This document shows, one piece after another, positions 14,730-64,000 of a stretch of DNA of 64,000 bases. The stretch's first letter is position 1. The number at the start of each line of letters is the position of its first letter. The position numbers and the translations under genes were made by a program. Source of the DNA: an uncultured Eubacteriales bacterium (GTDB lineage: Bacteria; Bacillota; Clostridia; Lachnospirales; Bianqueaceae); the NCBI GenBank assembly GCA_900316145.1, contig ONBQ01000030.1, positions 288-64,287 of the forward strand, read 5' to 3'. Below the pieces are notes generated by a model. That model did not search any database. It worked only from the letters and a program-made list of their open reading frames with translations, and was not told where the DNA came from.

Positions 14730-16229
14730 ATGAAAAGCTTATCACCAAAGCCTAAAAAGTATAATCGCCCGGCGCGCATGGAAGAGATCCAGAAGGTGAT
14801 CGAGAAGGGACCTTTTACTGCGTCCATGGCCTCGTTGAAGAACTATAAGGTCCCCAAGTGGTACGAGGACGGAAAGTTTGGCATCTTCATCCATTGGGGT
14901 CCGTATTGCGTCCCGGCCTTCGGCAGCGAATGGTATCCCCGTTTCATGTATCAGCCGGGGACCAAAGAATTTGAACATCATATCAAGACATACGGCCCGC
15001 ATAAGGACTTTGGATATAAGGATTTCATTCCCATGTTCACTGCGGAGCAGTTCGATCCCAAAGATTGGGCACAGCTCTTTAAAGAAGCGGGAGCCCGTTT
15101 CGTAGTCCCGGTCGCGGAGCATCATGACGGTTTCCAGATGTACAAAAGTGATCTGTCTCGCTGGAACGCGGCGGAAATGGGGCCGAAGCGCGATATTCTC
15201 GGGGAGCTTGGCCAGGCCGTCCGGGAAGAAGGTATGATCCTTGGCGCGTCCAGTCATCGCGCGGAACACTACTGGTTCATGGACGGAGTTCACAAGATCG
15301 ACAGTGACTATACCGAAGATTTGGAAGATTTCTACGGTCCGGCCGCGCCGGCACCGGAGGATCATTCCAGCGTAACCCTTTGCCCGCCTACGGCTGATCA
15401 CCTGGATGACTGGCTGCTTCGGACCTGTGAGATCGTGGATAAATACCGTCCGCAGATCGTCTGGTTCGACTGGTGGATCAATCATCTGTCCTTCCGGCCT
15501 TATCTGGAAAAGTTTGCGGCGTACTACTACAATCGCTGCGCCGAATGGAACATTGGAGGAGCGATCAACTATAAGTATACGGCCTATGATGAGGGCTGCG
15601 CCGTCTTCGATGTCGAGCGTGGACAGCTTTCCAACGGGCGGACCATGCTTTGGCAGAATGATACGTCTGTCAGCAAAAACTCCTGGGGCTATATCGAGGG
15701 CCATGATTACAAAAAGCCGGTCGACATAGTATGCGACCTGGTGGATATCGTTTCCAAAAACGGAGCGCTCCTTCTGAACATCGGTCCGAAGGCGGATGGT
15801 ACGATCCCGGAAGAGGAGAGGAACATCATGCGGGAGATCGGCCGCTGGCTGAAGGCCAACGGAGAAGCCATCTATGGTACGCGTCCCTGGAAGATCTTTG
15901 GTGAAGGCCCGACCCAGATCCCGGAAGGAGCCTTTACGGATACGAACCGGGATAAGTTCACGGAGAAAGACATTCGGTACACGGCAAAAGGCCAGACCCT
16001 GTATGCCATCGTGATGGGCCGTCCGGAAGGAGGCACGGTCAGACTGACCGAGGTCAGACCGGAAGATGGCTATCGGATCGCGACGCTGCTGGAAGGCGAG
16101 CGCCTGAAGGCAAAGCCCTCGGAAGAAGGCCTTCTGGTCACGATGCCGGAAACCTTCACCTATGAAGAATATCCTTTCGTCATCCGTCTGAACAAAGGCC
16201 GCGCCGGCTTTGATGATAAAGACGAATGA
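14730..16229 (+). CDS. GH29 alpha-L-fucosidase
   Basis: 499 aa. WYEDGKFGIFIHWGPYCVPAFG, VVPVAEHHDGFQMYKS, NGALLLNIGP. Confidence 0.85.
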   Translation: MKSLSPKPKKYNRPARMEEIQKVIEKGPFTASMASLKNYKVPKWYEDGKFGIFIHWGPYCVPAFGSEWYPRFMYQPGTKEFEHHIKTYGPHKDFGYKDFIPMFTAEQFDPKDWAQLFKEAGARFVVPVAEHHDGFQMYKSDLSRWNAAEMGPKRDILGELGQAVREEGMILGASSHRAEHYWFMDGVHKIDSDYTEDLEDFYGPAAPAPEDHSSVTLCPPTADHLDDWLLRTCEIVDKYRPQIVWFDWWINHLSFRPYLEKFAAYYYNRCAEWNIGGAINYKYTAYDEGCAVFDVERGQLSNGRTMLWQNDTSVSKNSWGYIEGHDYKKPVDIVCDLVDIVSKNGALLLNIGPKADGTIPEEERNIMREIGRWLKANGEAIYGTRPWKIFGEGPTQIPEGAFTDTNRDKFTEKDIRYTAKGQTLYAIVMGRPEGGTVRLTEVRPEDGYRIATLLEGERLKAKPSEEGLLVTMPETFTYEEYPFVIRLNKGRAGFDDKDE

Positions 16230-16232
16230 TAA

Positions 16233-16280
16233 CAAAGACCGCCTGCGGACTTGATGTTCGCAAGCGGTCTTTCGTCTCTT
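16233..16280 (+). terminator. Rho-independent terminator
   Basis: AAAGACCGC (16233-16241) / GCGGTCTTT (16263-16271), then a T-rich CGTCTCTTTT. Confidence 0.5.
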
Positions 16281-16286
16281 TTCAAC

Positions 16287-16315
16287 TTGTATTATGCACT
16301 CTTTTATGTTACAAT
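16287..16315 (+). promoter_or_regulatory. Sigma-70-type promoter upstream of cysK
   Basis: TTGTAT (16287-16292), 17 nt, TACAAT (16310-16315). Confidence 0.45.
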
Positions 16316-16361
16316 GATAAAACTTGAAATTATCACACAGAAGAGGTTTAACTGAATCAAC

Positions 16362-17291
16362 ATGATCTATCAGAACGTACTGGAAGCGGTCGGGCATACC
16401 CCGCTGATCCGCTTGAATCATATGACAGGACCAGAGGACGCAAGGATCCTGGTCAAATACGAAGGCTTGAACATAGGCGGGTCCATCAAGACCCGCACCG
16501 CCTTAAAGATGATCGAAGAGGCGGAAAGAAGAGGGGAGCTGAACCCGGATTCGATCATCGTGGAACCGACAAGCGGCAATCAAGGCATAGGTCTGGCTTT
16601 GGTCGGCGCGGTCAAAGGCTATAAAGTAGTCATTATCATGCCGGACTCCGTCAGTCATGAACGCCGGCTGCTGGTCGCGCAATACGGGGCGGAAGTCAGG
16701 CTGGTCCATGATGATAATAACATCGGAGAGTGCATCCAGAATTGCATTGCCCTGGCGCATCAGATGGCAGAAGAAGATCCCAGAGTATTCGTGCCGGATC
16801 AGTTCAGCAATCCGGACAATCTGGCAGCCCATCTGGAGCATACCGGGTTGGAGATCCTGGAACAGGTGGATGGTCCGATCGATGCGTTTTGTTCCGGCAT
16901 CGGTACAGGCGGCACGATCAGCGGCATCGGACGGGTGCTGAAAGAGAAGAATCCGAACATCCAGATCTGCGCGGTGGAGCCGGAAAACGCGGCCATTTTG
17001 TCGGGCGGCAGCATCGGGACCCATCTGCAGATGGGCATCGGCGATGGCCTGATCCCGGATATCCTGGATCAGCACATCTATGATATGATCTATATCGTGA
17101 CGGATGAACAGGCCATGGAAACAACAAAAGCCCTCGCGAAAAAGGAGGGCATTCTGTGCGGCATTTCCAGCGGAACGAACGTGTGCGCGGCCATCAAGCT
17201 GGCAAAGCTTCTGGGAAAGGGCAAGACGGTCGTTACGGTGCTGCCGGATACCGGAGAGCGGTATTTCAGCACACCGCTGTTTGAAGGGTAA
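16362..17291 (+). CDS. cysK: Cysteine synthase A (O-acetylserine sulfhydrylase)
   Basis: 309 aa. GGSIKTRTA (PLP Lys), [21 protein letters not shown]. Confidence 0.9.
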
Positions 17292-17303
17292 AAGGAAAAA
17301 AGA

Positions 17304-17933
17304 TCAACCGCGGTGCGCGATCCTTTGTACAGAGGGATGGTGCTCACCGCTGATCCAATCACAGTCATTCGTGATCCAGCTCATGATCTCGAACATACGG
17401 GTCTCCCACGCTATGGTGGAGGCCTTTTGTTTTTCTGTCATAGGCTGCTCCATGGTGACATCGATCTCGTCATAACCGAAGATATATCCGCCGGAGGACC
17501 AGATGGTGAAGTTGCTGTCCGGACCAGGATCGGGAGCGCCGCCGCGGGCTGCGTCGTTTTCTGCCGACAGCACGTCATGGCGGTGTTTGTATTCCTCCTC
17601 GCTGCCGGGGACCAGCTTGGTCATAAAGACCCGGTGGCGGATCAGGCTTTTATCTTCCCGAATGATACCGATGTCCGAATACATCAACCGCATGGGGTAG
17701 GGAAAGAAGGACACGGTCGAAGAAAAGACGGAGATCAGCCGGGCAACATCCAGTGTGTTTTCGGAGCTTTCACCATACAGGAAAACCAGGTCTTCCGCCT
17801 GCCAAATGGAGAAATTGCGGACCTTATAGGATTCCAGTGAGGTACAAAGATCAGGCCAGGCCTGACCCAGCGCGGCACGAAAAGCAGCGCCTTGACCGGG
17901 CTTGATCTGTCCGGCGACAGTATATCGTTGCAT
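17304..17933 (-). CDS. Tandem L-rhamnose/L-fucose-mutarotase-like (RhaM fold) protein
   Basis: 209 aa in two halves of about 100 aa, each with the RhaM-like pattern (..GQGAAFRAALGQAWPDL..VRNFSIWQ..LVFLYGE; ..GSEEEYKHRHD..NFTIWSSGGYIFGYDE). Confidence 0.45.
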   Translation of the reverse strand: MQRYTVAGQIKPGQGAAFRAALGQAWPDLCTSLESYKVRNFSIWQAEDLVFLYGESSENTLDVARLISVFSSTVSFFPYPMRLMYSDIGIIREDKSLIRHRVFMTKLVPGSEEEYKHRHDVLSAENDAARGGAPDPGPDSNFTIWSSGGYIFGYDEIDVTMEQPMTEKQKASTIAWETRMFEIMSWITNDCDWISGEHHPSVQRIAHRG

Positions 17934-18103
17934 GATAGGTACGTTCCTTTCTGGCAGAATAAGCTGCCTTCATTATATCGAAAGCGTCAGGAAAAAGCAA
18001 TCATCCATCTGACCTTATAAAAATATTAAATTCTGGCTATTTATTTAATGCCAGATTGGAGTATAATAAGGCCAGAAGTTTGAGAAAGAGGTGTATTCAT
18101 ATC

Positions 18104-18934
18104 ATGAAAAAGATCCTTACGATACAAGATATTTCCTGCTTTGGCAAGTGCTCCCTTACCATTGCCCTGCCGGTCATCTCCGCGATGGGCGTAGAGACGG
18201 TCATCCTGCCCACGGCGGTCCTGTCCACCCATACCATGTTCAAAAACTTTACCGTAAAAGACCTGACGGATCAGCTGCTGCCGATCACGCAGCACTGGAA
18301 GAATGAAGGCATCACCTTTGACGCCATCTATACCGGGTACCTGGGTTCCGCGGAGGAGATCGAGATCGCGAAGGAGATCTTCCGCATGTTCAAGACCGAT
18401 GACACGATGATCTTTATTGACCCGGTCATGGCGGATAACGGAAAGATGTATCCGGCCTTTGATGAAAACTACGCCAAGCTGAACGCGGGACTGTGCGGGG
18501 AGGCCGATATCATCGTGCCGAATATTACAGAAGCCTGCTTTATGACCGGCACCGAATATAAAGAAGAGTACGACGAGGCCTATGTGCTGGACCTCCTGCA
18601 TAAACTGGCTGGTCTTGGTGCCAAAACGGTCGTGCTGACCGGCGTGTCCCTGTCCAAAGGCAAGACCGGTATCTACGGCCTGGAAACAGCCACGGGCCGC
18701 ACCTTCCAGTATCAGAATGACCGGATCGACGCCTCCTATCATGGAACCGGCGACCTGTTCTCCAGCGTGACCATAGGCGCCTTAATGCGGGGCTATGATC
18801 TGGAAAAAGCCTTCCAGATCGCGGCGGATTATACCGCACGTACCATCGAAGTTACGATGGAAAACCCGGACAAGCCCTGGTACGGGGTCGATTTCGAAGC
18901 GACTTTGCCGGAGCTGATGCAGATGTTGAAATAA
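18104..18934 (+). CDS. pdxK: Pyridoxal/pyridoxamine kinase
   Basis: ATG at 18104 (MKKILTIQDISCFGKCSL..). Ribokinase-fold PdxK pattern: YTGYLGS, IDPVMADNGKMY, YHGTGDLFSS. Confidence 0.8.
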   Translation: MKKILTIQDISCFGKCSLTIALPVISAMGVETVILPTAVLSTHTMFKNFTVKDLTDQLLPITQHWKNEGITFDAIYTGYLGSAEEIEIAKEIFRMFKTDDTMIFIDPVMADNGKMYPAFDENYAKLNAGLCGEADIIVPNITEACFMTGTEYKEEYDEAYVLDLLHKLAGLGAKTVVLTGVSLSKGKTGIYGLETATGRTFQYQNDRIDASYHGTGDLFSSVTIGALMRGYDLEKAFQIAADYTARTIEVTMENPDKPWYGVDFEATLPELMQMLK

Positions 18935-18961
18935 TGCCCAAACCCAAGCCTTCATAGAGCA

Positions 18962-19021
18962 AAGAAGCTGTCTTACGAGCAAGCAGAGGAAATCGCTTGT
19001 GTAAGACAGCTTCTTTTTTTA
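18962..19021. terminator. Rho-independent terminator between convergent pdxK and the MATE gene
   Basis: AAGAAGCTGTCTTAC (18962-18976) / GTAAGACAGCTTCTT (19001-19015), followed by a T run. Confidence 0.75.
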
Positions 19022-19029
19022 TACAGTTT

Positions 19030-20388
19030 CTATACTGCTCCGTCAACCTTTGGAAGCTTACGCCGGATCCACAGATATACGATGAAGTGGGCCAGCGTGG
19101 TGATCAGCCAGGAGATCGGATAGGAGATGTAAAGCCCGTGCAGGGTATGAAAGTGCGGGAAGATGGCGTAGATCCAGACGATACGCAGTCCGCAGGCGCC
19201 GATCAGGGATACGATGGTCGGCAGCAGGGAATAGCCCATGCCGCGGATCTGGCCGGAAAATACATCCATCCAGCCGCAGATGAAATATACCAGACCTACA
19301 TACAGAAGACGGATGGAACCCGCCGCGATGACTTCGGCATCCGAAGTGTAGATATTAAGCGCCTGCGCGCGGAACAGGTAGAGCAGACCGCCCAGGACGG
19401 CGCCGATCACAGTGGCCAGAGCCAGATTGATGATCAGGACCCGGTTCAGGCGGCTGTATTTTTTGGCGCCCAGGTTTTGACCGGCAAAGCACAGAGCCGA
19501 TTGGCTGAAGGAATTGATACTGGTATAGACGAAACCGCCCACGTTGGAGGCAGCTGTGTTGGCCGCCATAACGGTCCCGCCGAAGGAGTTGACGGAAGAC
19601 TGGATGATCGCGTTGGATAAGGAGAACAGGCAGCCCTGGATGCCGGCCGGAAGACCGGTGCGGGTGATGGCCCAAAGCTTGTCTTTATAGATGCGAAGCT
19701 GCTTCCAGTACAGGTGACAGCTCCCGTGCAGTTTGGTCAGATACCGCAGGATCAGGAAGGCGGAGACGGCCTGGGAAATGATGGTGGCCAAAGCGACGCC
19801 GTCCACATCCATGTGCAGGACGATCACGAAGAACAGATTGAGAAGAAAATTCAGGACCCCGGCGATGGTCAGATAGTACAACGGATGACGGGTGTCGCCG
19901 GTGGCACGCAGGATGGCGCTGCCGAAATTGAAGGGCATCATGGCGATCATGCCGCAGAAGTAGATCCTCATGTACAGGACTGACTTATCGATGACATCCT
20001 CAGGCGTATCCATGAGCCGAAGCAGAGGATAAGCGAGGATCAGCCCCAGGACGGTCAGGATGATCCCGCCCAGAAAACTGACGGCGATAGAGGTGTGGAC
20101 CGTTTCGTGAATGTCCTGGTGGCGCTGAGCTCCGTAATGCTGCGCAACGATAACGTTGGTCCCCACGGACAGGCCGATGAACAGATTGACGATCAGATTG
20201 GTGATGGCGCCGGTGGAACCGACAGCGGCCAGGGCTGTATTGCCGGCAAAGCGTCCGACCACGACCAGGTCGGCGGCGTTGAACAAGAGCTGCAATACAC
20301 CGGCAGCCATGACGGGTAAGGTAAATTTAAGGATCTTGCCGACAAGCGGCCCGCTTGTCATGTCGATATCATATCTTCGGGAAGCCAT
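19030..20388 (-). CDS. MATE-family efflux transporter
   Basis: Preferred start is the ATG at 20388 (MASRRYDIDMTSGPLVGKILKFTLPVMAAG, GAAGGA RBS). The track start at 20502 adds an implausible 38-aa leader. Confidence 0.85.
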   Translation of the reverse strand: MASRRYDIDMTSGPLVGKILKFTLPVMAAGVLQLLFNAADLVVVGRFAGNTALAAVGSTGAITNLIVNLFIGLSVGTNVIVAQHYGAQRHQDIHETVHTSIAVSFLGGIILTVLGLILAYPLLRLMDTPEDVIDKSVLYMRIYFCGMIAMMPFNFGSAILRATGDTRHPLYYLTIAGVLNFLLNLFFVIVLHMDVDGVALATIISQAVSAFLILRYLTKLHGSCHLYWKQLRIYKDKLWAITRTGLPAGIQGCLFSLSNAIIQSSVNSFGGTVMAANTAASNVGGFVYTSINSFSQSALCFAGQNLGAKKYSRLNRVLIINLALATVIGAVLGGLLYLFRAQALNIYTSDAEVIAAGSIRLLYVGLVYFICGWMDVFSGQIRGMGYSLLPTIVSLIGACGLRIVWIYAIFPHFHTLHGLYISYPISWLITTLAHFIVYLWIRRKLPKVDGAV

Positions 20389-54992: not shown

Positions 54993-55940
54993 ATGTCTTT
55001 TTCCGGCGACGTTAAACGCGAGATCGCGGAACACATCGGCTCCGCCAGACATTGCGTCATCGCGGAATTGTCTGCCTTGATCCAGGCTTTGGGAAAATGG
55101 TCCGTGGAACCGGTCTCTCTCGCGATCCACGCGGAGAGTGAGCTCGCCTATAAAAAAGTCTTTACTTTAATGCAAAAAGCATTTAATATAAAGATCGAAG
55201 CAGATGAGATCTCTTCAGAAGGCGCAGGGTTTACCAGCCGGATCGAGACTCCTTCCCATGTCTATACGATCTTAAGCGCGGTCGGGCTCATCCACCGGAC
55301 GGCGGAAGGATGGGAATCCTCAGAGGCAGCGGAAGATCGTATCACAGCACGCAGCTGCTGCAAGCGGGCTTTCGTAAGAGGAACGTTCTTAGGCTGCGGT
55401 TCGATCAATGATCCATCGAAGACGTATCATATGGAATTCGTCTTTGAGCAGGAAACGCAGGCGAATAAACTCCAGAAGATCCTGAAAGAATTCGAAGTCG
55501 AGACCCATTCCCTGACCAGACAAAGAGGCAGCCGCAAGCTGAATGTCGTCTATCTGAAAGACGGCCAGCAGATCGCGGATGTTTTGAACATCATGGGCAG
55601 CCACCATGCGCTGCTGCGCTTTGAAGATATCCGCGTGGTCAAAGACGTGCGCAATCAGGTCAATCGGCAGGTCAACTGCGAAGCGGCCAATCTGGACCGC
55701 GTAGTCAGCGCGGCGGTGCGGCAGCTGGAGGACATCCGTTACCTCAAAGATACGATCGGCCTGGAGGAGCTGCCTGCCGGGCTGAAGGAAGCCGCCATGC
55801 TGCGGCTGGAGAATGAAGACCTGAGCCTGAAAGAACTGGCGGCCATGATGGGCATTGGAAAATCCGGTGTCAATCATCGCTTCCGCAAACTCATGGCTAT
55901 GGCGGAGGAGATCCGCAAGACGGCCCAAAATCAAGCCTGA
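54993..55940 (+). CDS. whiA: DNA-binding protein WhiA
   Basis: MSFSGDVKREI.., a LAGLIDADG-derived middle region, and a C-terminal HTH LSLKELAAMMGIGKSGVNHRFRKL. Confidence 0.9.
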   Translation: MSFSGDVKREIAEHIGSARHCVIAELSALIQALGKWSVEPVSLAIHAESELAYKKVFTLMQKAFNIKIEADEISSEGAGFTSRIETPSHVYTILSAVGLIHRTAEGWESSEAAEDRITARSCCKRAFVRGTFLGCGSINDPSKTYHMEFVFEQETQANKLQKILKEFEVETHSLTRQRGSRKLNVVYLKDGQQIADVLNIMGSHHALLRFEDIRVVKDVRNQVNRQVNCEAANLDRVVSAAVRQLEDIRYLKDTIGLEELPAGLKEAAMLRLENEDLSLKELAAMMGIGKSGVNHRFRKLMAMAEEIRKTAQNQA

Positions 55941-55988
55941 TCGTCTCTTTTACAGAGACACAGATAGATTCAACCAGGAGGTGTTTGC

Positions 55989-56240
55989 ATGATCGAGAAA
56001 GTCGTAAAAGTCAAGCTGCAGGAAGGAATGGAAGCGGCTGCGCTGCTGGTCCAGACAGCCTGCCAGTACAAAAGCAACATTCAGGTCCTTGTTGATGGCA
56101 AAACGGTCAACGCCAAAAGTATCATGGGCGTCATGATGCTGAGCATGGTCGAGAATGAAAGCATCCGTGTCGTGGCAAACGGTGAGGATGAAGAAGAGGC
56201 CATCCAGGGCGTAGCAGCTGTTTTGTCAAGCGAAGAGTAA
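55989..56240 (+). CDS. crh: HPr-like phosphocarrier paralogue lacking His15 (Crh-like)
   Basis: 83 aa. Ser46 context NAKSIMGVMML is conserved. The His15 region reads QEGMEAAALLVQ, with no His. Confidence 0.8.
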   Translation: MIEKVVKVKLQEGMEAAALLVQTACQYKSNIQVLVDGKTVNAKSIMGVMMLSMVENESIRVVANGEDEEEAIQGVAAVLSSEE

Positions 56241-56274
56241 TAAATACCGTATTCAATATGGAGGAAGAACCATT

Positions 56275-57558
56275 ATGAAAATGGAGCAGTTGAAGCAACA
56301 GCTTCGTTCCGTATCCGGACAGGCCTTGCTGACCAAACTATATGGGGAAGAAGAAGTGGCGGCCCAGACAGCCCGCTATGAAACATTGATGGGACAGTTC
56401 CTTGAGGACTTCGGGGATCTGGATGTATCCTTGTTTACTTCTCCCGGACGGTCCGAGATCGGCGGAAATCACACAGACCATAACCATGGCCGGGTACTCG
56501 CTGCCAGCATCAATCTGGACTGCGTAGGCATCGCGGCCAAGGTCGAAGAACCGGTGATCGAGTTTGTCAGTGTCGACTATGATCAGCGTATCCGTATCGA
56601 GCTGGATGATATCGAATATGATCCGGAAGAAAAGGGTACCCTGGCTCTGGTCAAGGGCATGCTGAAAGGATTCAAGGAGTTTGGCTATCAGATCGGTGGT
56701 TTTAAAGCCTACATCACCAGCAACGTCATCAGCGCGGCCGGCATCAGCTCTTCTGCCGCGTTCGAAATGTTGATCTGCGCCATGTTGAATGCGTTTTACA
56801 ATGAAGGCCGCATGGACGTTACCAGCTACGCCCACATTGGACAGTATTCGGAGAACCATTACTGGCTCAAGGCCTCCGGCCTTCTGGATCAGATGGCCTG
56901 CGCCGTTGGCGGCCTGATCACCATCGATTTCAAAGATCCAAAGCATCCGCAGGTAGAGCCTGTTGCCTTCGACTTTGAAAAGCAGAACTATAACCTCATG
57001 ATCGTCAACACCGGTAAGGGTCACGCGGATCTTTCCGCCGAGTATTCTTCCGTGCCGGAAGAGATGAAATCCGTAGCGCGCTTCTTCGGAAAAGAAGTGC
57101 TGCGTGATGTCGATCCGGAGGATCTGAAGAACAATCTGGCGGCTGTACGCGCCAAGACCGGTGACCGTGCCGTTATGCGCGCGCTGCATTTCTTCTATGA
57201 GAACGAGCGCGTAGCCGATGAGGTCGAGGCGCTTAAGAAGAATGATTTCGATGCCTTCCTGGAAATGATCACCGCTTCCGGTAATTCTTCCTGGAAATGG
57301 CTGCAGAACGTGCACTTCCAGGCGGAAGAACAGGGCATCGCGGTCGCGCTGGCCTACACCGAAATCTTCCTGAAGCAGAAGGGCGTCGGCGCCTGCCGTG
57401 TTCATGGCGGCGGCTTTGCGGGTGTCATCATGGCTATGATCCCCTCTGAACTGGCTGAGGAATACACTGAGTATATGGAAAATCTGCTGGGCAAGGGCAA
57501 CGTATACCGCATGAGCATCCGCAGCATCGGAGCGGTTTGCCTGGATGGGATGATCTGA
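56275..57558 (+). CDS. galK: Galactokinase-family GHMP kinase
   Basis: GRSEIGGNHTDHNHG (galactokinase signature variant). GHMP motif ISAAGISSSAAFE. 427 aa. Confidence 0.75.
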   Translation: MKMEQLKQQLRSVSGQALLTKLYGEEEVAAQTARYETLMGQFLEDFGDLDVSLFTSPGRSEIGGNHTDHNHGRVLAASINLDCVGIAAKVEEPVIEFVSVDYDQRIRIELDDIEYDPEEKGTLALVKGMLKGFKEFGYQIGGFKAYITSNVISAAGISSSAAFEMLICAMLNAFYNEGRMDVTSYAHIGQYSENHYWLKASGLLDQMACAVGGLITIDFKDPKHPQVEPVAFDFEKQNYNLMIVNTGKGHADLSAEYSSVPEEMKSVARFFGKEVLRDVDPEDLKNNLAAVRAKTGDRAVMRALHFFYENERVADEVEALKKNDFDAFLEMITASGNSSWKWLQNVHFQAEEQGIAVALAYTEIFLKQKGVGACRVHGGGFAGVIMAMIPSELAEEYTEYMENLLGKGNVYRMSIRSIGAVCLDGMI

Positions 57559-57667: not shown

Positions 57668-57696
57668 TTGACATATACACAAAAAAAAAGTAAAAT
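57668..57696 (+). promoter_or_regulatory. Near-consensus sigma-70 promoter of the VWA/tubulin-like module, with an A9 tract in the spacer
   Basis: TTGACA (57668-57673), 17-nt spacer containing A9 (57681-57689), TAAAAT (57691-57696). Confidence 0.55.
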
Positions 57697-57862
57697 AATT
57701 GTAATATTGTGTAGCAAAATCGAGTTTTGTTCGGTATTCATAACAGAAGACCGAAAACAGAGGCGCTTCTTGCTTCTGACAGCCGGATCAGGCCGGCTTT
57801 CTTCTTGTATTACCAATCTACCTATATCTACAGCAAAAGAGAAATGGGGGAATGAAACGCTT

Positions 57863-60466
57863 ATGAGACGAAAATTAAGCGTACTGCTTGCCGTGCTGAT
57901 GCTGTTATCAGCAGTGACAGCCTTTGGCGCCAAGCCAATCGAGGCGGCAGAAAAAGCCCAAAAGACCAGGGCCATCGCCATTGTATATGACAATTCCGGT
58001 TCCATGTACTGGGACGGAATGAACCGTGGAGGCGGTAAATGGTGGTGCCAGGCCTTGTATGCAATGGAAGTCTTCGCATCCATGATGAATGAGGGAGACA
58101 GCATTTGGATCTATCCTATGTGGCCGGTTACGGCACAAGGTCAGAGCTATCCGCAAGGGTCGCCGATCCAGATCACAAATCCTAAGGACGCACCTATCAT
58201 CCGCGATATTGAAACACCGCAGGCCGGCAATACACCGATCCAGTCGATCGAATGGGCTTATGAAGGACTGAAGTCCATGACCGGTGATGAGAAGTGGCTG
58301 GTCGTTCTTACAGATGGGGCCAATTTCAATGCTCCGGATGGCCCGGCCTATGGCGAAGGGGATCCGACCAGACAAGCGTTGGAAGAATTGATACAGCCAT
58401 ACGTCAATGATGTAAACGTCCTGTATCTGGGTATCGGAGATGAAGCCTCCAAACCCAATATCTCACCCGGCAGTCAGTTCCAGGGCATGGCCGATAAGGC
58501 CGTTCGCAGTGAAGAGATCCTTTCCAAACTGACGAGCATGTGCAATATGATCTTCGGTCGAGATGAACTGCAGACGTCCGGCGGTACGGTCGAATTTGAT
58601 GTTTCTATGGCCCGCCTGATCGTTTTTGTACAGGGTGACAATGTTTCCAACGTGGACCTGGCTGGAGCGGGAACGCGCGGAGATGATCTCTCCCCGCGGT
58701 ACAGCGAGCACAAATCGACAAAAGACTCGCAAGGCTCCTTCGACGGCGGTATCGATGATACGCTGCAAGGCGTGATCACCAACTTCTATGACGCGCCGGC
58801 GGGTTCCTATACTTTAAGCTACTCAGGAAGCGTTACGAGTACAGGTGTATACTACGAGCCGGATGTTGACCTCGTCGCCCGTCTGGTAGATGCCAACGGC
58901 AATGATGTGACCAACAATCCGGAGCTTTCTCCTGGAGAGTATACGATCGAATATGGTCTTGTCGATGGACAGACCGGGGAAATGACAAGTTCCGATCTGC
59001 TGGGTAATACGCATTATGATGTGAATTATACCCTCAATGGGGAGACCTTCTCCCTTTCCACCGACGAAAAGCAGGGAACGATTCCGGTTTCCTTTGGAGA
59101 AGAGGATACTTTCAAGCTGGATGATATTACCGTTGAATACCTGAGCGGATATCGAATCCATAAATCCGGCGATGAACTGGGATGGCCGAGCGGAGGCGTC
59201 ACGATCCCGAAGCAGGGTCCTGATCCGGCTGGCGAGCTGGCCATCACCGTTTCCGGCGGGACGGATCACTATAACCTTTCCACACTGGAAGAGGAAGAGC
59301 CCTACACGCTGGAATTCACCTATGATGGGAATAAGATGAGCGCCGATCAGGTCGCTACGATCGAACTGGACATCCAGAGCCAGAATGCGGGCATCGCTTT
59401 TGAACCGGTGCTGGATGGAGATCACTATACCGTGACCGTCCACTACGCCGATGAAGCCCATCCGGAAAACACGGAGTGCGGTGATGTGGTCGCCCTGATC
59501 AAGGCTTCCTATACGGAGCCGGAGCATGAAACGGCGACAGCCAACGCGGCTATCAACTTCACCCTGGATAACGATGTGACCGGACTTGGCGCCAAACTCG
59601 AAATGGAGCATGAACGCTACACGCTCGCTGAGCTGGATGGATCACAGGCTATTCTGAACCTGACGATGGGCGGCGAACCGCTGACCGATCAGCAGATGGC
59701 TGACCTGAACGTGGAAGTCACAGTCGCGGATAAAAAAGGCCATACGATCCCTTATACAGTGGAGAAAGATCCGGCCGGATCCCGCGCGATCATCACATTC
59801 AGCAAAGAAAACGTCAAGACGGGCAATTATAAGATCGATGTGACAGCCACGACCAAGGATCAGATCGGTATGGATTCATCCGCATCGGCCTCGGCGAAAT
59901 TCCATGTCAGACGGTTCCCGCTTTGGCTCATCTTCACAGGAATCTTCGTGATCCTGGCCCTGCTTGCGGCCTTGGCCTGGTTCATCCTGAGCCGCAAGGT
60001 CCTGCCGAAGAGAGTCTTCGTCAGAAACACGATCTATTCCGTAGATGGAGAAGAGGTCCCGGGTGATCCGCAGGTCAACTTCAAAGGCGCCAGACAGAAA
60101 ACAGGTACCATCCAGATCACGGTCCCGCGCTCAGCCGCGCATCCTATGGCCAGAGCACACTTTACACTGCATGTGGAAGCAGCGGATACGCGCTTCAAGG
60201 TCCTGAAGAAAGCACTGACGGGTAAAGGCAGCCTGACGGCGATCTGCACCGGAATAGATTCCCACCTCAACGTTAAACGTGTTATGGTTTCCGGAACGGC
60301 GGTCAACTGGGATGAAGAGACCCATCGTCAGATCCTTCCGCCGGGTGAGGATCATCTGGCACCGTTCCGTATCGGAACCGATGACTCCGCTTCCATGAAT
60401 GCTGAAGCAATGGATGAAAATGGCTATGTCGACATGAACATGACGACAAACTTTAATTTCAGATAA
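57863..60466 (+). CDS. Secreted type-I membrane protein with an N-terminal VWA (MIDAS) domain, a long extracellular region, one TM and a cytoplasmic tail
   Basis: ATG at 57863 (MRRKLSVLLAVLMLLSAVTAFGA signal peptide); the track start at 57668 sits inside the promoter. MIDAS DNSGS at 57989-58003, GNTP, VVLTDG. TM FPLWLIFTGIFVILALLAALAWFILS at 59915-59992, followed by RK and 157 aa. Confidence 0.8.
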   Translation: MRRKLSVLLAVLMLLSAVTAFGAKPIEAAEKAQKTRAIAIVYDNSGSMYWDGMNRGGGKWWCQALYAMEVFASMMNEGDSIWIYPMWPVTAQGQSYPQGSPIQITNPKDAPIIRDIETPQAGNTPIQSIEWAYEGLKSMTGDEKWLVVLTDGANFNAPDGPAYGEGDPTRQALEELIQPYVNDVNVLYLGIGDEASKPNISPGSQFQGMADKAVRSEEILSKLTSMCNMIFGRDELQTSGGTVEFDVSMARLIVFVQGDNVSNVDLAGAGTRGDDLSPRYSEHKSTKDSQGSFDGGIDDTLQGVITNFYDAPAGSYTLSYSGSVTSTGVYYEPDVDLVARLVDANGNDVTNNPELSPGEYTIEYGLVDGQTGEMTSSDLLGNTHYDVNYTLNGETFSLSTDEKQGTIPVSFGEEDTFKLDDITVEYLSGYRIHKSGDELGWPSGGVTIPKQGPDPAGELAITVSGGTDHYNLSTLEEEEPYTLEFTYDGNKMSADQVATIELDIQSQNAGIAFEPVLDGDHYTVTVHYADEAHPENTECGDVVALIKASYTEPEHETATANAAINFTLDNDVTGLGAKLEMEHERYTLAELDGSQAILNLTMGGEPLTDQQMADLNVEVTVADKKGHTIPYTVEKDPAGSRAIITFSKENVKTGNYKIDVTATTKDQIGMDSSASASAKFHVRRFPLWLIFTGIFVILALLAALAWFILSRKVLPKRVFVRNTIYSVDGEEVPGDPQVNFKGARQKTGTIQITVPRSAAHPMARAHFTLHVEAADTRFKVLKKALTGKGSLTAICTGIDSHLNVKRVMVSGTAVNWDEETHRQILPPGEDHLAPFRIGTDDSASMNAEAMDENGYVDMNMTTNFNFR

Positions 60467-60502
60467 TAAACCAATCATGAATCAACATGAAGGAGGAAAA
60501 CA

Positions 60503-63500
60503 ATGAGAAACGAAAACCTGAAACCCAATACCGTAGACGCTCCTACCTTGTTCGTCGGCGTCGGCGGTACCGGCAGTGACATCGTCCGCATGGTAGCGGA
60601 GATGTGTGATCCGGCGGAAGTAGAGAACATCAGCTTCGTCTGCCTGGACACCAACGTCAATGACCTGTCCAATGTCGAGAACAGCGGCGCCAAGATCTAC
60701 GCGGTACAGACTTCTACCACGCAGACCGTCGGTGACTATCTGGACTATGATGAGGACGCGTTAAAGAACTGGTTCCCGAAGAACGCGGTCATGTATGATA
60801 AGACCGTTTCCGAAGGCGCCGGCCAGGTCCGCGCGATCTCCCGTCTGGCCCTGAACTCCACCATCAAGACCGGCAAGATCGCTCCTCTGTATGACGCGAT
60901 CGACAACCTGTTCCGTAAGGACGGCCGCAAGCTGAAGCAGGCCATGCGTGTCGCTATCGTTTCCACCGCCTCCGGTGGTACCGGTTCCGGTATCATTCTG
61001 CCGCTGGCCATGTTCATCCGTGATTACATCAAGAATAAGTATCCGCAGACCGGTACGATCGTTCGTTCCATGATCCTTCTGCCGGAGACCCTGGATTCCG
61101 TCATCACCTCTTCTGTAGAGCGTGACAGCCAGCGCCGCAATGCTTACGCGACCATCAAGGAGATCAACGCTTTCATGATGAAAGGCTCGGGCTTCTGCGA
61201 TATCGATGGTGATTTCAGCCGCTACAGAGATCTGCATGTGGATATTCCGATCGCGGGCACCAATGATAAAAAATCTCTGTCTCTGCTGCCGTTCGATTTC
61301 TGCTTCCTGCTGGATGGCCAGAACTCCGAAGACAACACCCTGGTCAACTTCGGCCAGTACAAGAGACAGGCTGCCCAGGCTCTGTATGAGCAGAACATCG
61401 GACCGATGCAGAAGGGCGCCTTCTCCGTAGAAGACAATATTATCAAGGAAATGTCCAACCCCGGCAATCTGGGACGTAACCGTTTCGGTGGTATCGGCGC
61501 GGGCGTTCTGCGCTATCCGTACAAGCAGATCGCGGAATACATCGCCTATGGCTGGGCTATGGAGTCCATCGGCGGAGCCGGTGAGGCCGCAAAATGGTCC
61601 AAGTATGATAACGAATTTGAAGTAAAACTGGCTGAGGCCCGCAAGAAGGGACTTTCTCAGGAAGAGGCTCCGAAGCGCGCGGAAGTCTACACGCAGACCC
61701 TGCAGTCCGCGACCGACAACTTCTCCAAGGATCTTCGCTCCAAGTTCCTGAACAACGCCGACAAGCGTGTCCGCAACTACTTCACCTCTCTGGCCAACTA
61801 CATGCATGACAGTGTACGAGCCAACAGCATGATCTCCGCCACCATGACCGCTGCCGGCCATCTGGAGAACAAGATCGATTACGCGAACAATGAAAACAAC
61901 CGTGGCCATGCGGTAGAAAACCTGGCCCGCCTGCGTGATTTCGAAGCGGCTGTCAACATGAACGCCAAGAAGGTCGCGGAAAGCATCGCCGAAGCGGTCT
62001 TCATGAATGAAGATAAGACCATCAACGCCAAGCTGCCGCACACCCTGGAGTTCCTGCTGAAGAACTCTTATGGTGAAGTCAGCCATCCGAACGCGGCCCG
62101 CTTCATGCTGTATCAGGCTCAGACTGAGATCAACAAGCGCGTCCTGACCACGCAGTCCCGTCTGGGACAGGCCCAGGAGACCCTGGAACTGTACTCCGAC
62201 GATGCCAGCAATGAGAACATGTTCGATGTCGGCAAGACCAAGAAAGAAAAAGAAGAGAACATGGATCAGATGGTCGCCGCTGAAGCCAACTTCAAAGAGA
62301 AGTACAACGAGGATTACTATGAGAGCAAGCTGAACAAGCACTTCCCGGCTTACTTCCGCGCTGTCAAGGAATTCTGCGAACTGACTGCTGAACTCGAAGC
62401 CTACAAGATCGGTTCTGAGTACATCAAGGAACTGTCCAAGGCTTATGAGAAGTTCTATCAGACCTTTGGCGACAAGGTCGAGGCTCTTATGCGCAAGCGT
62501 GAGGATATCGTCGATGAGTTGAAGTTCGTCAAGGGCGACTCTGTCCTGAACATCTGCGCCAGCCGTGCCATGCTTGAAGAGCTGGCCCTGACCACGAAGA
62601 ACCAGAGTGCCGAAGGCTCTCTGCTTAGCTCCGAGCTGAACGCCAAGATCTTTGACGCGGTCAAAGCCAATGTCGCTTTCGAGCGCGAGATCCGCAACGC
62701 GGATATCGTTGAAGAAGATAAGCGCATCGATATCTTCGATGACATCATCCTTGGCTACTTCAAGGACAGCGTAGAAGATACCTGCGATACCATCAACCTG
62801 AACATCATCGAAGCCATCGCTATGGAGAACCGTCTGCAGGCCCGCATCAAGATGCGTGAGAAGCAGAAGGACAATGGCGAAGAGGGTGATAAGATCTTCG
62901 ATCAGGTCACCCATAAGGACAATGAGACCTACATCAAGAAGATCATCGATAAGGGCATGCGCCTGGCGGCTCCCGGCATCCAGAGCATCCGCAACGAGGA
63001 AGACCGCATGGTACAGTGCGCGGCCTACAACTCTTCTCTGAGAGATATGCGCAACTACCGCGTAGATGATCTGATCGAGGTCAGCAACAAGGCGGCCGTC
63101 GACAGCATCTCCCGTTATGAGCTGCATTTCTTCAACGCGCTGTACAACATCACTCCGGATAAGCTGAAGAAATTCGCCTGCCACAGTGAGAGCGAGACCG
63201 GCGTCAAGAACGCGGGACTGTATCACAACGCGTATATCTCCTATGCGCGCAACATCGGCCCGGATTCCACCAAGAACACCCAGATCTCCACGCATATCGA
63301 CAAGCGTTGGGATTCCCTGGCTACCATGCCGGAAATGGACTTCAAGTTCCAGAACGAGCAGATGATGAAGATCCATCAGGCGATGATCTATGGTCTGGTG
63401 CACAACGCCATCACCTTCCGCAAGCTTTCCGCGAGCGCCGGCAAGAAGCGCGTCTATCGGTATGAGAATTCCGATGAGCGTTACACCGAGCTGATCGTTT

Positions 63501-64000
63501 CCAACGGTACGCTTTGCGATGAGTTCTATGAGATCCTGGATTCTCTGTACATCAGCTCCTCCATCGTTGAGGATATCCAGAGAGTCAAGAATAAGAAGAA
63601 CGCGAAGGACCGTGTCCGCAACGCCAACTATGTCGATACCGTATTCTACAATGACCTGCAGAATTTCCAGATCGACACCCTACATGAAGGCCAGGCCAGC
63701 CTCTTCGAGATCCCGGTCGCGTACTACAATTCTTTGCCGAACAGCCGTCGTTTCGATGATGAGATCTCGGCGATCGTAGACGCTGTGGTCAAGACCTTTG
63801 AGGATGAGACTTACATGTGGGAGAAAGCAGAGGATGCCCGCTTCATCCTGTGCAACCAGCTGGTCGAACAGTTCAACCTGTTCCTGGACAACTTTGAGAA
63901 GTGCGAAGCTCTGAGAGCGAACCTGAGCGTACAGGATCATCCGGTCGTAGATATGATCTTCCGTAAGATCAAGAACGTTCTGGAAACCGATCCGGAACCC
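60503..64000 (+). CDS. Giant tubulin/FtsZ-superfamily GTPase-like protein (5' part; ORF still open at the window end)
   Basis: Not in the supplied track. AGGAGG RBS at 60491-60496, ATG at 60503, 1166 sense codons with no stop to nt 64000. GVGGTGS at 60557-60577, GAGQVR at 60815-60832, SGGTGSG at 60971-60991. Confidence 0.75.
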   Translation, partial: MRNENLKPNTVDAPTLFVGVGGTGSDIVRMVAEMCDPAEVENISFVCLDTNVNDLSNVENSGAKIYAVQTSTTQTVGDYLDYDEDALKNWFPKNAVMYDKTVSEGAGQVRAISRLALNSTIKTGKIAPLYDAIDNLFRKDGRKLKQAMRVAIVSTASGGTGSGIILPLAMFIRDYIKNKYPQTGTIVRSMILLPETLDSVITSSVERDSQRRNAYATIKEINAFMMKGSGFCDIDGDFSRYRDLHVDIPIAGTNDKKSLSLLPFDFCFLLDGQNSEDNTLVNFGQYKRQAAQALYEQNIGPMQKGAFSVEDNIIKEMSNPGNLGRNRFGGIGAGVLRYPYKQIAEYIAYGWAMESIGGAGEAAKWSKYDNEFEVKLAEARKKGLSQEEAPKRAEVYTQTLQSATDNFSKDLRSKFLNNADKRVRNYFTSLANYMHDSVRANSMISATMTAAGHLENKIDYANNENNRGHAVENLARLRDFEAAVNMNAKKVAESIAEAVFMNEDKTINAKLPHTLEFLLKNSYGEVSHPNAARFMLYQAQTEINKRVLTTQSRLGQAQETLELYSDDASNENMFDVGKTKKEKEENMDQMVAAEANFKEKYNEDYYESKLNKHFPAYFRAVKEFCELTAELEAYKIGSEYIKELSKAYEKFYQTFGDKVEALMRKREDIVDELKFVKGDSVLNICASRAMLEELALTTKNQSAEGSLLSSELNAKIFDAVKANVAFEREIRNADIVEEDKRIDIFDDIILGYFKDSVEDTCDTINLNIIEAIAMENRLQARIKMREKQKDNGEEGDKIFDQVTHKDNETYIKKIIDKGMRLAAPGIQSIRNEEDRMVQCAAYNSSLRDMRNYRVDDLIEVSNKAAVDSISRYELHFFNALYNITPDKLKKFACHSESETGVKNAGLYHNAYISYARNIGPDSTKNTQISTHIDKRWDSLATMPEMDFKFQNEQMMKIHQAMIYGLVHNAITFRKLSASAGKKRVYRYENSDERYTELIVSNGTLCDEFYEILDSLYISSSIVEDIQRVKNKKNAKDRVRNANYVDTVFYNDLQNFQIDTLHEGQASLFEIPVAYYNSLPNSRRFDDEISAIVDAVVKTFEDETYMWEKAEDARFILCNQLVEQFNLFLDNFEKCEALRANLSVQDHPVVDMIFRKIKNVLETDPEP

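Follow-up and report, generated by a model that had tools for sequence, protein, structure and literature searches.

The last gene in a 64,000-nucleotide stretch of DNA from an uncultured bovine-gut Clostridia bacterium (GenBank assembly GCA_900316145.1, contig ONBQ01000030.1, positions 288 to 64,287 of the forward strand; hereafter the window) encodes a member of the FtsZ-like 1 (FtsZl1; Tubulin_2, PF13809) family, whose build and partner genes were published by Makarova and Koonin (2010, Biol Direct 5:33; PMC2875224); the protein is a new orthologue of this known family. Very probably it is a cytoplasmic member of the tubulin/FtsZ superfamily, in which a tubulin-like head carries a family-specific extension and is accompanied by a conserved membrane module. 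The head is a tubulin-fold nucleotide-binding domain with intact T1, T2, T3 and T4 loops. The gene occupies a single frame of 1166 codons, the 3′-end of which is open at the window edge; since a public protein of 1182 residues is 99.6% identical over all 1166 residues, only 16 C-terminal residues lie outside the window. A preliminary description, made from the letters of the sequence, had begun the feature at 60557, which is the first base of the T1 loop; the gene itself begins at 60503. The whole of the domain logic proposed there, namely GTP-binding loops followed by a long helical region, had already been published for FtsZl1 in 2010 (PMC2875224).

Family membership is carried by the Pfam match. 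PF13809 is found with 181.3 bits (E = 4.3e-53; gathering cut-off, 27 bits) over residues 16-355, accounting for 354 of the 356 profile positions. The general Tubulin/FtsZ GTPase model of Pfam matches weakly, below its cut-off, and the Pfam scan reveals neither FtsZ_C nor Tubulin_C. Assignment to FtsZ proper was rejected because TIGR00065 scores 15.8 bits, far below its equivalog cut-off of 295.2, and covers residues 16-74 only. A word-indexed search returned 571 homologues, the best 120 of which are all 1170-1206 residues in length and derive from Clostridia gut metagenome-assembled genomes, some being named “tubulin-like doman-containing protein” by NCBI; an exhaustive search returned 1343 clusters at 50% identity. 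The full-length architecture of about 1050-1280 residues is retained down to about 20% identity, with alignments that span almost the entire length. HMMER searches against PDB sequences, using the single protein and profiles of 18 and 85 sequences, gave noise only (fragments of retroviral protease, designed bundles of helices and, over residues 14-60, FtsZ at E = 4), and no PADLOC model matches the FtsZl1 protein or any of its module partners.

The GTP-binding loops were examined in an alignment of 85 relatives with identities down to about 20%, from which all of the conservation counts given here are taken. The T1, T3 and T4 loops that the preliminary description had picked out by eye, GVGGTGS, SEGAGQVRAISR and SGGTGSG, are located at residues 19-25, 103-114 and 157-163, exactly as it placed them. 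Alignment of the head profile with Escherichia coli FtsZ (b0095) using hhalign (E = 6e-4) is reliable across T1, T2, S3, T3 and T4. In this alignment GVGGTGS is opposite FtsZ GVGGGGG, the DTN of DTNVN is the column match of the NTD of FtsZ NTDAQ, GAGQ in T3 pairs with FtsZ GAGA, and T4 is the best-aligned block; T4 is also the best-aligned block against α/β-tubulin, where the alignment is reliable only around this loop and serves only as a lead. T1 and T4 are signature loops of the superfamily (GGGTG[ST]G-like), and their glycines vary little or not at all (G19, G21, G22 and G24 of T1 are without exception); R110 in T3 is invariant, and D49, T50 and N53 of the T2-like loop are each at least 90% conserved. 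Inserts between T1 and T4 are a published property of the family (PMC2875224), and one is present here: residues 84-104 have no FtsZ counterpart in the hhalign alignment, and extra short helices are predicted at residues 76-106. Two further elements of the head are conserved. N213-A-Y-A-x-x-K-E220, in which N213 and E220 are found in 85/85 sequences, may have a role in nucleotide binding; and FDFCFLLDGQN, with D271 in 67 and N274 in 61 of the 85, would correspond to tubulin DCAFMVDNEA, a likeness seen by eye.

The protein was modeled at full length with AlphaFold2 (AF2) from the 85-sequence alignment (mean pLDDT 91.5, pTM 0.80). The strands of the head follow in the order S1-S6, with T1 to T4 each situated after the expected strand and an inserted hairpin at residues 246-259; after S6 come helices 283-298 and 303-317, one strand (328-337), and helix 340-356. 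Comparison with PDB using Foldseek gave 288 matches at E ≤ 1e-3, headed by the TubZ protofilament (2xka/2xkb), β- and γ-tubulins and CetZ2, all at a probability of 1.00, with E values of about 2e-5 to 1e-4, 350-380 alignment columns and 9-17% identity. The preliminary description had reckoned with the head adopting some other fold; the search places it with TubZ and tubulin. FtsZ is not among the best 50 fold matches. TubZ, which functions in plasmid partition, the tubulins and CetZ share the T4 sequence GGTGSG identically with the window protein, and TubZ and tubulin differ from it in that it lacks a canonical T7 loop, has a C-terminal sheet apparently reduced to one strand, and continues for about 825 unrelated residues.

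That no T7 loop could be recognized by eye is borne out by pattern search, the canonical NxDxx[DE] being absent from the first 420 residues, and the lack of an obvious FtsZ-type C-terminal domain is likewise confirmed at the sequence level (Pfam, TIGR00065 and hhalign). A profile alignment of the head, to which the preliminary description had looked for T7, proved reliable for T1 to T4 against FtsZ and did not locate T7: past T4 its confidence drops to about zero, and T6-H7, T7 and the FtsZ/tubulin C-terminal domain are not identifiable with hhalign, Pfam or pattern search, as had been reported for the family (PMC2875224). The AF2 model offers a candidate. Helix 283-298 carries Y286, present in 74/85 sequences, near its N-terminal end, and is a candidate for the core helix H7. 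It is followed by a conserved G300-P301 turn and then by S308-x-E310-D311-N312, the named residues of which are found in 82, 80, 84 and 84 of the 85 sequences, a conservation like that of the T1 and T4 glycines. If Y286 is taken to be the aromatic that stacks on guanine where H7 begins, which the comparison presupposes, the distance from it to E310 is 24 residues, as against 27 from the aromatic of FtsZ (F182) or tubulin (Y224) to the first Asp of T7. On the basis of conservation and spacing we tentatively suggest that the SxEDN element might replace canonical T7 and supply the catalytic acid in trans; in polymerizing members of the superfamily T7 is the synergy loop behind H7 by which the active site of the neighboring subunit is completed. 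Ahead of the last strand of the head lies another conserved element, G324-R325-N326-R327.

The extension beyond the head is specific to the FtsZl1 family and comprises 825 residues, 809 of which are within the window. It had been described as at least 800 residues of charged helical sequence, which is correct for residues 358-830 (70% helix) and 1006-1166 (75% helix) and incorrect for residues 831-1005, a conserved mixed α/β domain (25% helix, 27% strand) with near-invariant Y881, F891, G905, Y911, H931, D933, W936 and P943. Overall, the post-head region is 61% helix in the AF2 model. The first helical region is poorly conserved except for a block at residues 526-550 (P529, R533, L536). Of the heptad-like stretches that had been noticed, two were located, at residues 580-614 and 642-673, where they are contained in or abut a single predicted helix of 71 residues; in a crude test heptad periodicity exceeded the 99th percentile of shuffled sequences in five short segments only, all between residues 413 and 679. 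The long stalk or coiled coil that these stretches had been thought to form is not what the model reveals: it is a compact multi-domain body. Modeled alone, the tail retains a pLDDT of 91.9 and a pTM of 0.73, and Foldseek finds nothing for it at E ≤ 1e-3 in PDB (best E = 0.098, probability 0.06, TM-score at most 0.24) or at E ≤ 0.001 in BFVD. The 809-residue tail, as modeled, thus appears to have no significant structural relative in either database. Past the window, close homologues possess a conserved PEP-D/E-x-x-E-x-x-L-E-x-M-K-x-x-I tail after a Pro-rich break (residues 1163-1182 of the public protein); by its position it is reminiscent of the C-terminal docking peptides of FtsZ and TubZ. 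Distant members of the family do not conserve it.

The gene immediately upstream encodes an 867-residue membrane protein consisting of a signal peptide, an extracellular vWA-like domain, a β-rich region, one transmembrane helix and a 158-residue cytoplasmic tail. A D-x-S-x-S ... T ... LTDG pattern is typical of the vWA MIDAS site, and in this protein DxSxS, the Thr and LTDG do not vary among 17 orthologues. The vWA fold itself found no Pfam match and no PDB sequence or profile match; the assignment stands on the MIDAS motifs and on the COG2304 label given in 2010 to the orthologue BACCAP_04124. Because the FtsZl1 gene runs past the end of the window, the downstream genes were read in relatives, at 80 species-level genome loci (42-86% identity, all Clostridia, mostly gut or rumen). 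The order vWA, FtsZl1, g3, g4 is found in 80/80 loci, as far as the contigs reach. The product of g3 (family B5) is 650-740 residues long with two transmembrane helices; that of g4 (family B12) measures 1400-2000 residues with four N-terminal transmembrane helices, and is sometimes split in two. The two genes overlap, and a small lipoprotein and further multi-spanning membrane proteins are variable additions to the module. Searches of the partners against Pfam and NCBIfam gave sub-threshold noise only, and PDB profile searches with B5, B12 and the vWA protein gave no match.

Two motifs of the g4 product, a CxxC...CxxC zinc ribbon and HExxH, show no variation across 13 sequences. In L001, a relative of 75% identity (g4 at 15670-20001; the same gene in L004-L082) the protein ends in the zinc ribbon and HExxH...E (H1347, E1348, H1351, E1377), preceded by an acidic, proline-rich low-complexity linker, and there is a weak, sub-threshold match to the putative metallopeptidase family DUF6782. 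B12 may act as an effector peptidase within the module; the middle part of the protein (residues 330-1000) is highly conserved and has no match in Pfam, NCBIfam or PDB sequences.

The same operon was tabulated in the supplement to the 2010 paper (PMC2875224), which describes FtsZl1 operons that include vWA proteins and lineage-specific membrane proteins: in Pseudoflavonifractor (“Bacteroides”) capillosus ATCC 29799 it comprises BACCAP_04124 (vWA, COG2304, 861 residues), BACCAP_04123 (FtsZl1, 1183 residues), BACCAP_04122 (family B5, 658 residues) and BACCAP_04121 (family B12, 1435 residues). BACCAP_04123, the closest listed family member, is 63% identical to the window protein over its full length (locus L065). 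The two share an FtsZ-like domain at the N-terminus with T1, T4 and the inserts between, a T6-H7/T7 region and C-terminal domain that cannot be aligned by sequence, a long middle part made up of helices and a C-terminal part that is mostly helical; the gene order is the same, and nothing essential differs. What the AF2 model adds to the published account is a candidate H7, the SxEDN element, the α/β subdomain at residues 831-1005, and a tail without a solved relative. The same bacterium has a second FtsZl1 paralogue of 1103 residues in an operon of another type, with a vWA protein and “GTPase_new” (BACCAP_01022-01027; PMC2875224 supplement), so that one genome can hold both GTPase-linked and B5/B12-linked types of module.

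Table 1. Features of the FtsZl1 locus, with positions counted from the first nucleotide of the window
Feature	Position (nt)	Strand	Residues, basis and remarks
Promoter-like TTGACA-17-TAAAAT	57668-57696		Near-consensus; 5′ of vWA gene
Upstream partner gene (vWA)	57863..60466	+	867-residue membrane protein; open reading frame, hydrophobicity scan, motifs
MIDAS-type motif D43-N-S-G-S47	57989-58003		Upstream vWA protein
MIDAS-type motif LTDG	58307-58318		Upstream vWA protein
Transmembrane helix	59921-59989		Upstream vWA protein; hydrophobicity scan
Shine-Dalgarno AGGAGG	60490..60495	+	7 nt 5′ of ATG at 60503; read from sequence
FtsZl1 / Tubulin_2 gene	60503..64000	+	aa 1-1166 of ~1182; open frame and PF13809
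Tubulin-like head	60503..61573	+	aa 1-357; PF13809, AF2, Foldseek
T1 loop GVGGTGS	60557..60577	+	aa 19-25; hhalign to FtsZ
T2-like DTNVN	60647..60661	+	aa 49-53; counterpart of FtsZ NTDAQ
Antisense open reading frame	60761..63403	-	880 aa; opposite FtsZl1 gene
T3 loop and start of H3, SEGAGQVRAISR	60809..60844	+	aa 103-114
T4 signature SGGTGSG	60971..60991	+	aa 157-163
N213-A-Y-A-x-x-K-E220	61139..61162	+	Beginning of helix 204-228 (H5 region)
Strand S6 with the loop after it, FDFCFLLDGQN	61292..61324	+	aa 264-274; AF2 strand 266-270
Candidate core helix H7	61349..61396	+	aa 283-298; AF2 helix, Y286 near N-terminal end
Candidate T7/H8 equivalent S308-V-E310-D311-N312	61424..61438	+	Conservation and spacing
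Helical region	61574..62992	+	aa 358-830; 70% helix (AF2)
Single 71-residue helix	62309..62521	+	aa 603-673 (AF2)
Mixed α/β domain, conserved	62993..63517	+	aa 831-1005
C-terminal helical region	63518..64000	+	aa 1006-1166; AF2 model

How such a protein might work can be outlined step by step. The head is likely to bind GTP in the manner of tubulins. With about even chances, GTP-dependent self-association of the heads would build or switch a membrane complex with the three membrane partners, thereby coupling the extracellular vWA ligand-binding domain, via its cytoplasmic tail, to an assembly in the cytoplasm. In its most complete form, which we consider rather unlikely as a whole, a full T1-T6 pocket, a guanine-stacking Y286 on a shortened H7, and SxEDN acting in trans would yield a head-to-tail polymer, and the 825-residue tail would dock these filaments to the tail of the vWA receptor and to B5 and B12. 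As to the cellular role, membrane remodeling was proposed for FtsZl1 in 2010 (PMC2875224), and in 2020 a part in conflict or defense was suggested for related tubulin-vWA systems (PMC7159879).

Several observations weigh against this account. A literature search found no experimental study on any FtsZl1 protein, and in later papers the family is regarded as divergent and its function as unknown (PMC3160578, PMC9871819); GTP binding, hydrolysis and polymerization are accordingly all inferred. The TM-scores to TubZ and tubulin are modest at 0.31-0.42 (normalized to the target), values that fit a match confined to the N-domain. The SxEDN element sits in predicted helix 303-317 rather than in a loop, and could equally serve the protein's own pocket or a partner interface. 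After the candidate H8 the model has a single strand (328-337) and no S8-S10 strands; the four-stranded S7-S10 sheet of the tubulin/FtsZ C-terminal domain thus appears, in the model, to be reduced to one strand, which fits the lack of an FtsZ-type C-terminal domain. Finally, that B5 and B12 follow FtsZl1 in the genome represented by the window is deduced from relatives of 75-86% identity.

Some of these same features would suit a non-polymerizing GTP-binding switch or scaffold, in which the head has lost its activation domain and serves as a regulator, either monomer or dimer, held by the large tail. The missing canonical T7 and the absent S8-S10 strands point in this direction, as does the tail, which packs confidently on the head and could block longitudinal contacts; that these proteins “do not form filaments” is moreover one of three options given by Makarova and Koonin (PMC2875224). 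Set against this are the near-invariant E310-D311 at the expected distance past the core helix and the fact that every characterized member of the superfamily polymerizes (authors' response, PMC2875224), and we regard the switch as a rather unlikely alternative. It is less probable still that the protein is a component of a conflict (anti-phage or kin-discrimination) system, in which NTP-dependent assembly would set a threshold and release an effector, possibly the HExxH protein B12; this idea is compatible with a receptor-coupled assembly of the kind outlined above. It derives from the GAP1-N2 GTPase-centric tubulin-vWA systems of Kaur, Burroughs, Iyer and Aravind (2020, eLife 9:e52696; PMC7159879), who in section 29 link Firmicute tubulin-plus-coiled-coil proteins to extracellular vWA membrane proteins, so that in both cases a Firmicute tubulin-domain protein, extended at its C-terminus by helices, lies beside a membrane protein whose vWA domain is extracellular. 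The patchy distribution of the family (the search pattern was matched by 401 of some 185,000 species genomes), the putative metallopeptidase motif of g4, and flanking genes that differ between the window and L001 speak for a conflict role as well. The defining GAP1 GTPase, a TRAFAC-class enzyme carrying N-terminal zinc ribbons, is however absent: a regular-expression search found Walker A in none of the seven module proteins of L001, and the GAP1-GTPase type of system was rejected since tests on L001 gave no Walker A, Pfam, NCBIfam or PADLOC match. The tubulin and vWA genes are each present singly rather than in pairs, no YtkA fusion was detected in the module, PADLOC recognizes none of its proteins, and the flanks are of a housekeeping nature, unlike a defense island. 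In the window these flanks (54993-57558, 5′ of the module) encode a WhiA-like protein, an 83-residue HPr/Crh-like protein and a GHMP-family (galactokinase-like) kinase, and in L001 the module is preceded by glnA and an MscS-type channel gene (mscS); the chromosomal position of the module is therefore not conserved.

The preliminary description had itself found the protein reminiscent of dynamin- or SMC-style mechanochemical proteins; on this reading the long coiled-coil stalk that bears the head would transmit force or bridge a distance. A post-head region that is 61% helix with one helix of 71 residues, five short segments whose heptad periodicity stands above shuffled controls, and partners that are membrane proteins, as is also the case with bacterial dynamin-like proteins, are what commend it. 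It is nevertheless most improbable. The dynamin superfamily is marked by a P-loop G1 motif and a helical stalk or bundle-signaling-element fold, and SMC proteins by ABC-type half-heads at the two termini, linked through a long antiparallel coiled coil that bears a hinge. What dynamin/BDLP and SMC have in common with FtsZl1 is no more than a loose resemblance, a nucleotide-binding head attached to helical segments; their head fold is different, and the window protein has no Walker A or P-loop (GxxxxGK[ST], pattern search), its nucleotide site being of the tubulin type. Dynamin is absent from the PDB fold matches listed by Foldseek for the whole protein and from the 50 listed for the tail. Wadjet JetABC entries appear for the tail only at E 2.3-3.6 with TM-scores of at most 0.08 (PDB), and BFVD phage proteins labeled SMC only at E 0.07-0.6 with TM-scores of at most 0.10. 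An SMC-like long coiled coil was rejected on account of the missing Walker A, the compact model and the α/β domain; no extended antiparallel coiled coil is seen.

Concerning the expression of the locus, the vWA and FtsZl1 genes are separated by only 36 nt and are for this reason probably co-transcribed. A promoter-like site lies 5′ of the vWA gene, and a GC-rich hairpin with a T-rich tail (57781-57798) is situated in the leader 3′ of it. The longest open reading frame for the vWA gene, starting with TTG at 57668, overruns both the promoter-like site and the hairpin; translation probably begins at the ATG at 57863, with which a signal peptide opens. The antisense frame of 880 residues opposite FtsZl1 was rejected as a gene, since all of the homology and fold evidence belongs to the plus-strand frame; it is a shadow of the FtsZl1 gene that could mislead gene callers. 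Many independent gut metagenomes of cattle and sheep contain the stretch, and short contigs 95-100% identical to both the vWA and FtsZl1 genes were found in four bovine-gut metatranscriptome assemblies, which is consistent with low-level transcription, the alternative being DNA carry-over.

The gene described here does not represent a new kind of system. Of practical value is the very confident predicted structure, including the 809-residue tail without a solved relative. The family to which the gene belongs ranks with the most divergent of the tubulin/FtsZ superfamily and is widely distributed. Whether FtsZl1 proteins bind and hydrolyze GTP, and whether they assemble into filaments in the absence of the usual activation domain, has a bearing on the evolution of the tubulin polymerization mechanism, and since P. 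capillosus ATCC 29799, which has the same operon, is in culture, these questions are open to experiment. If the complete mechanism outlined above were true, FtsZl1 would be an outside-in “receptor-coupled tubulin” machine of gut Clostridia.

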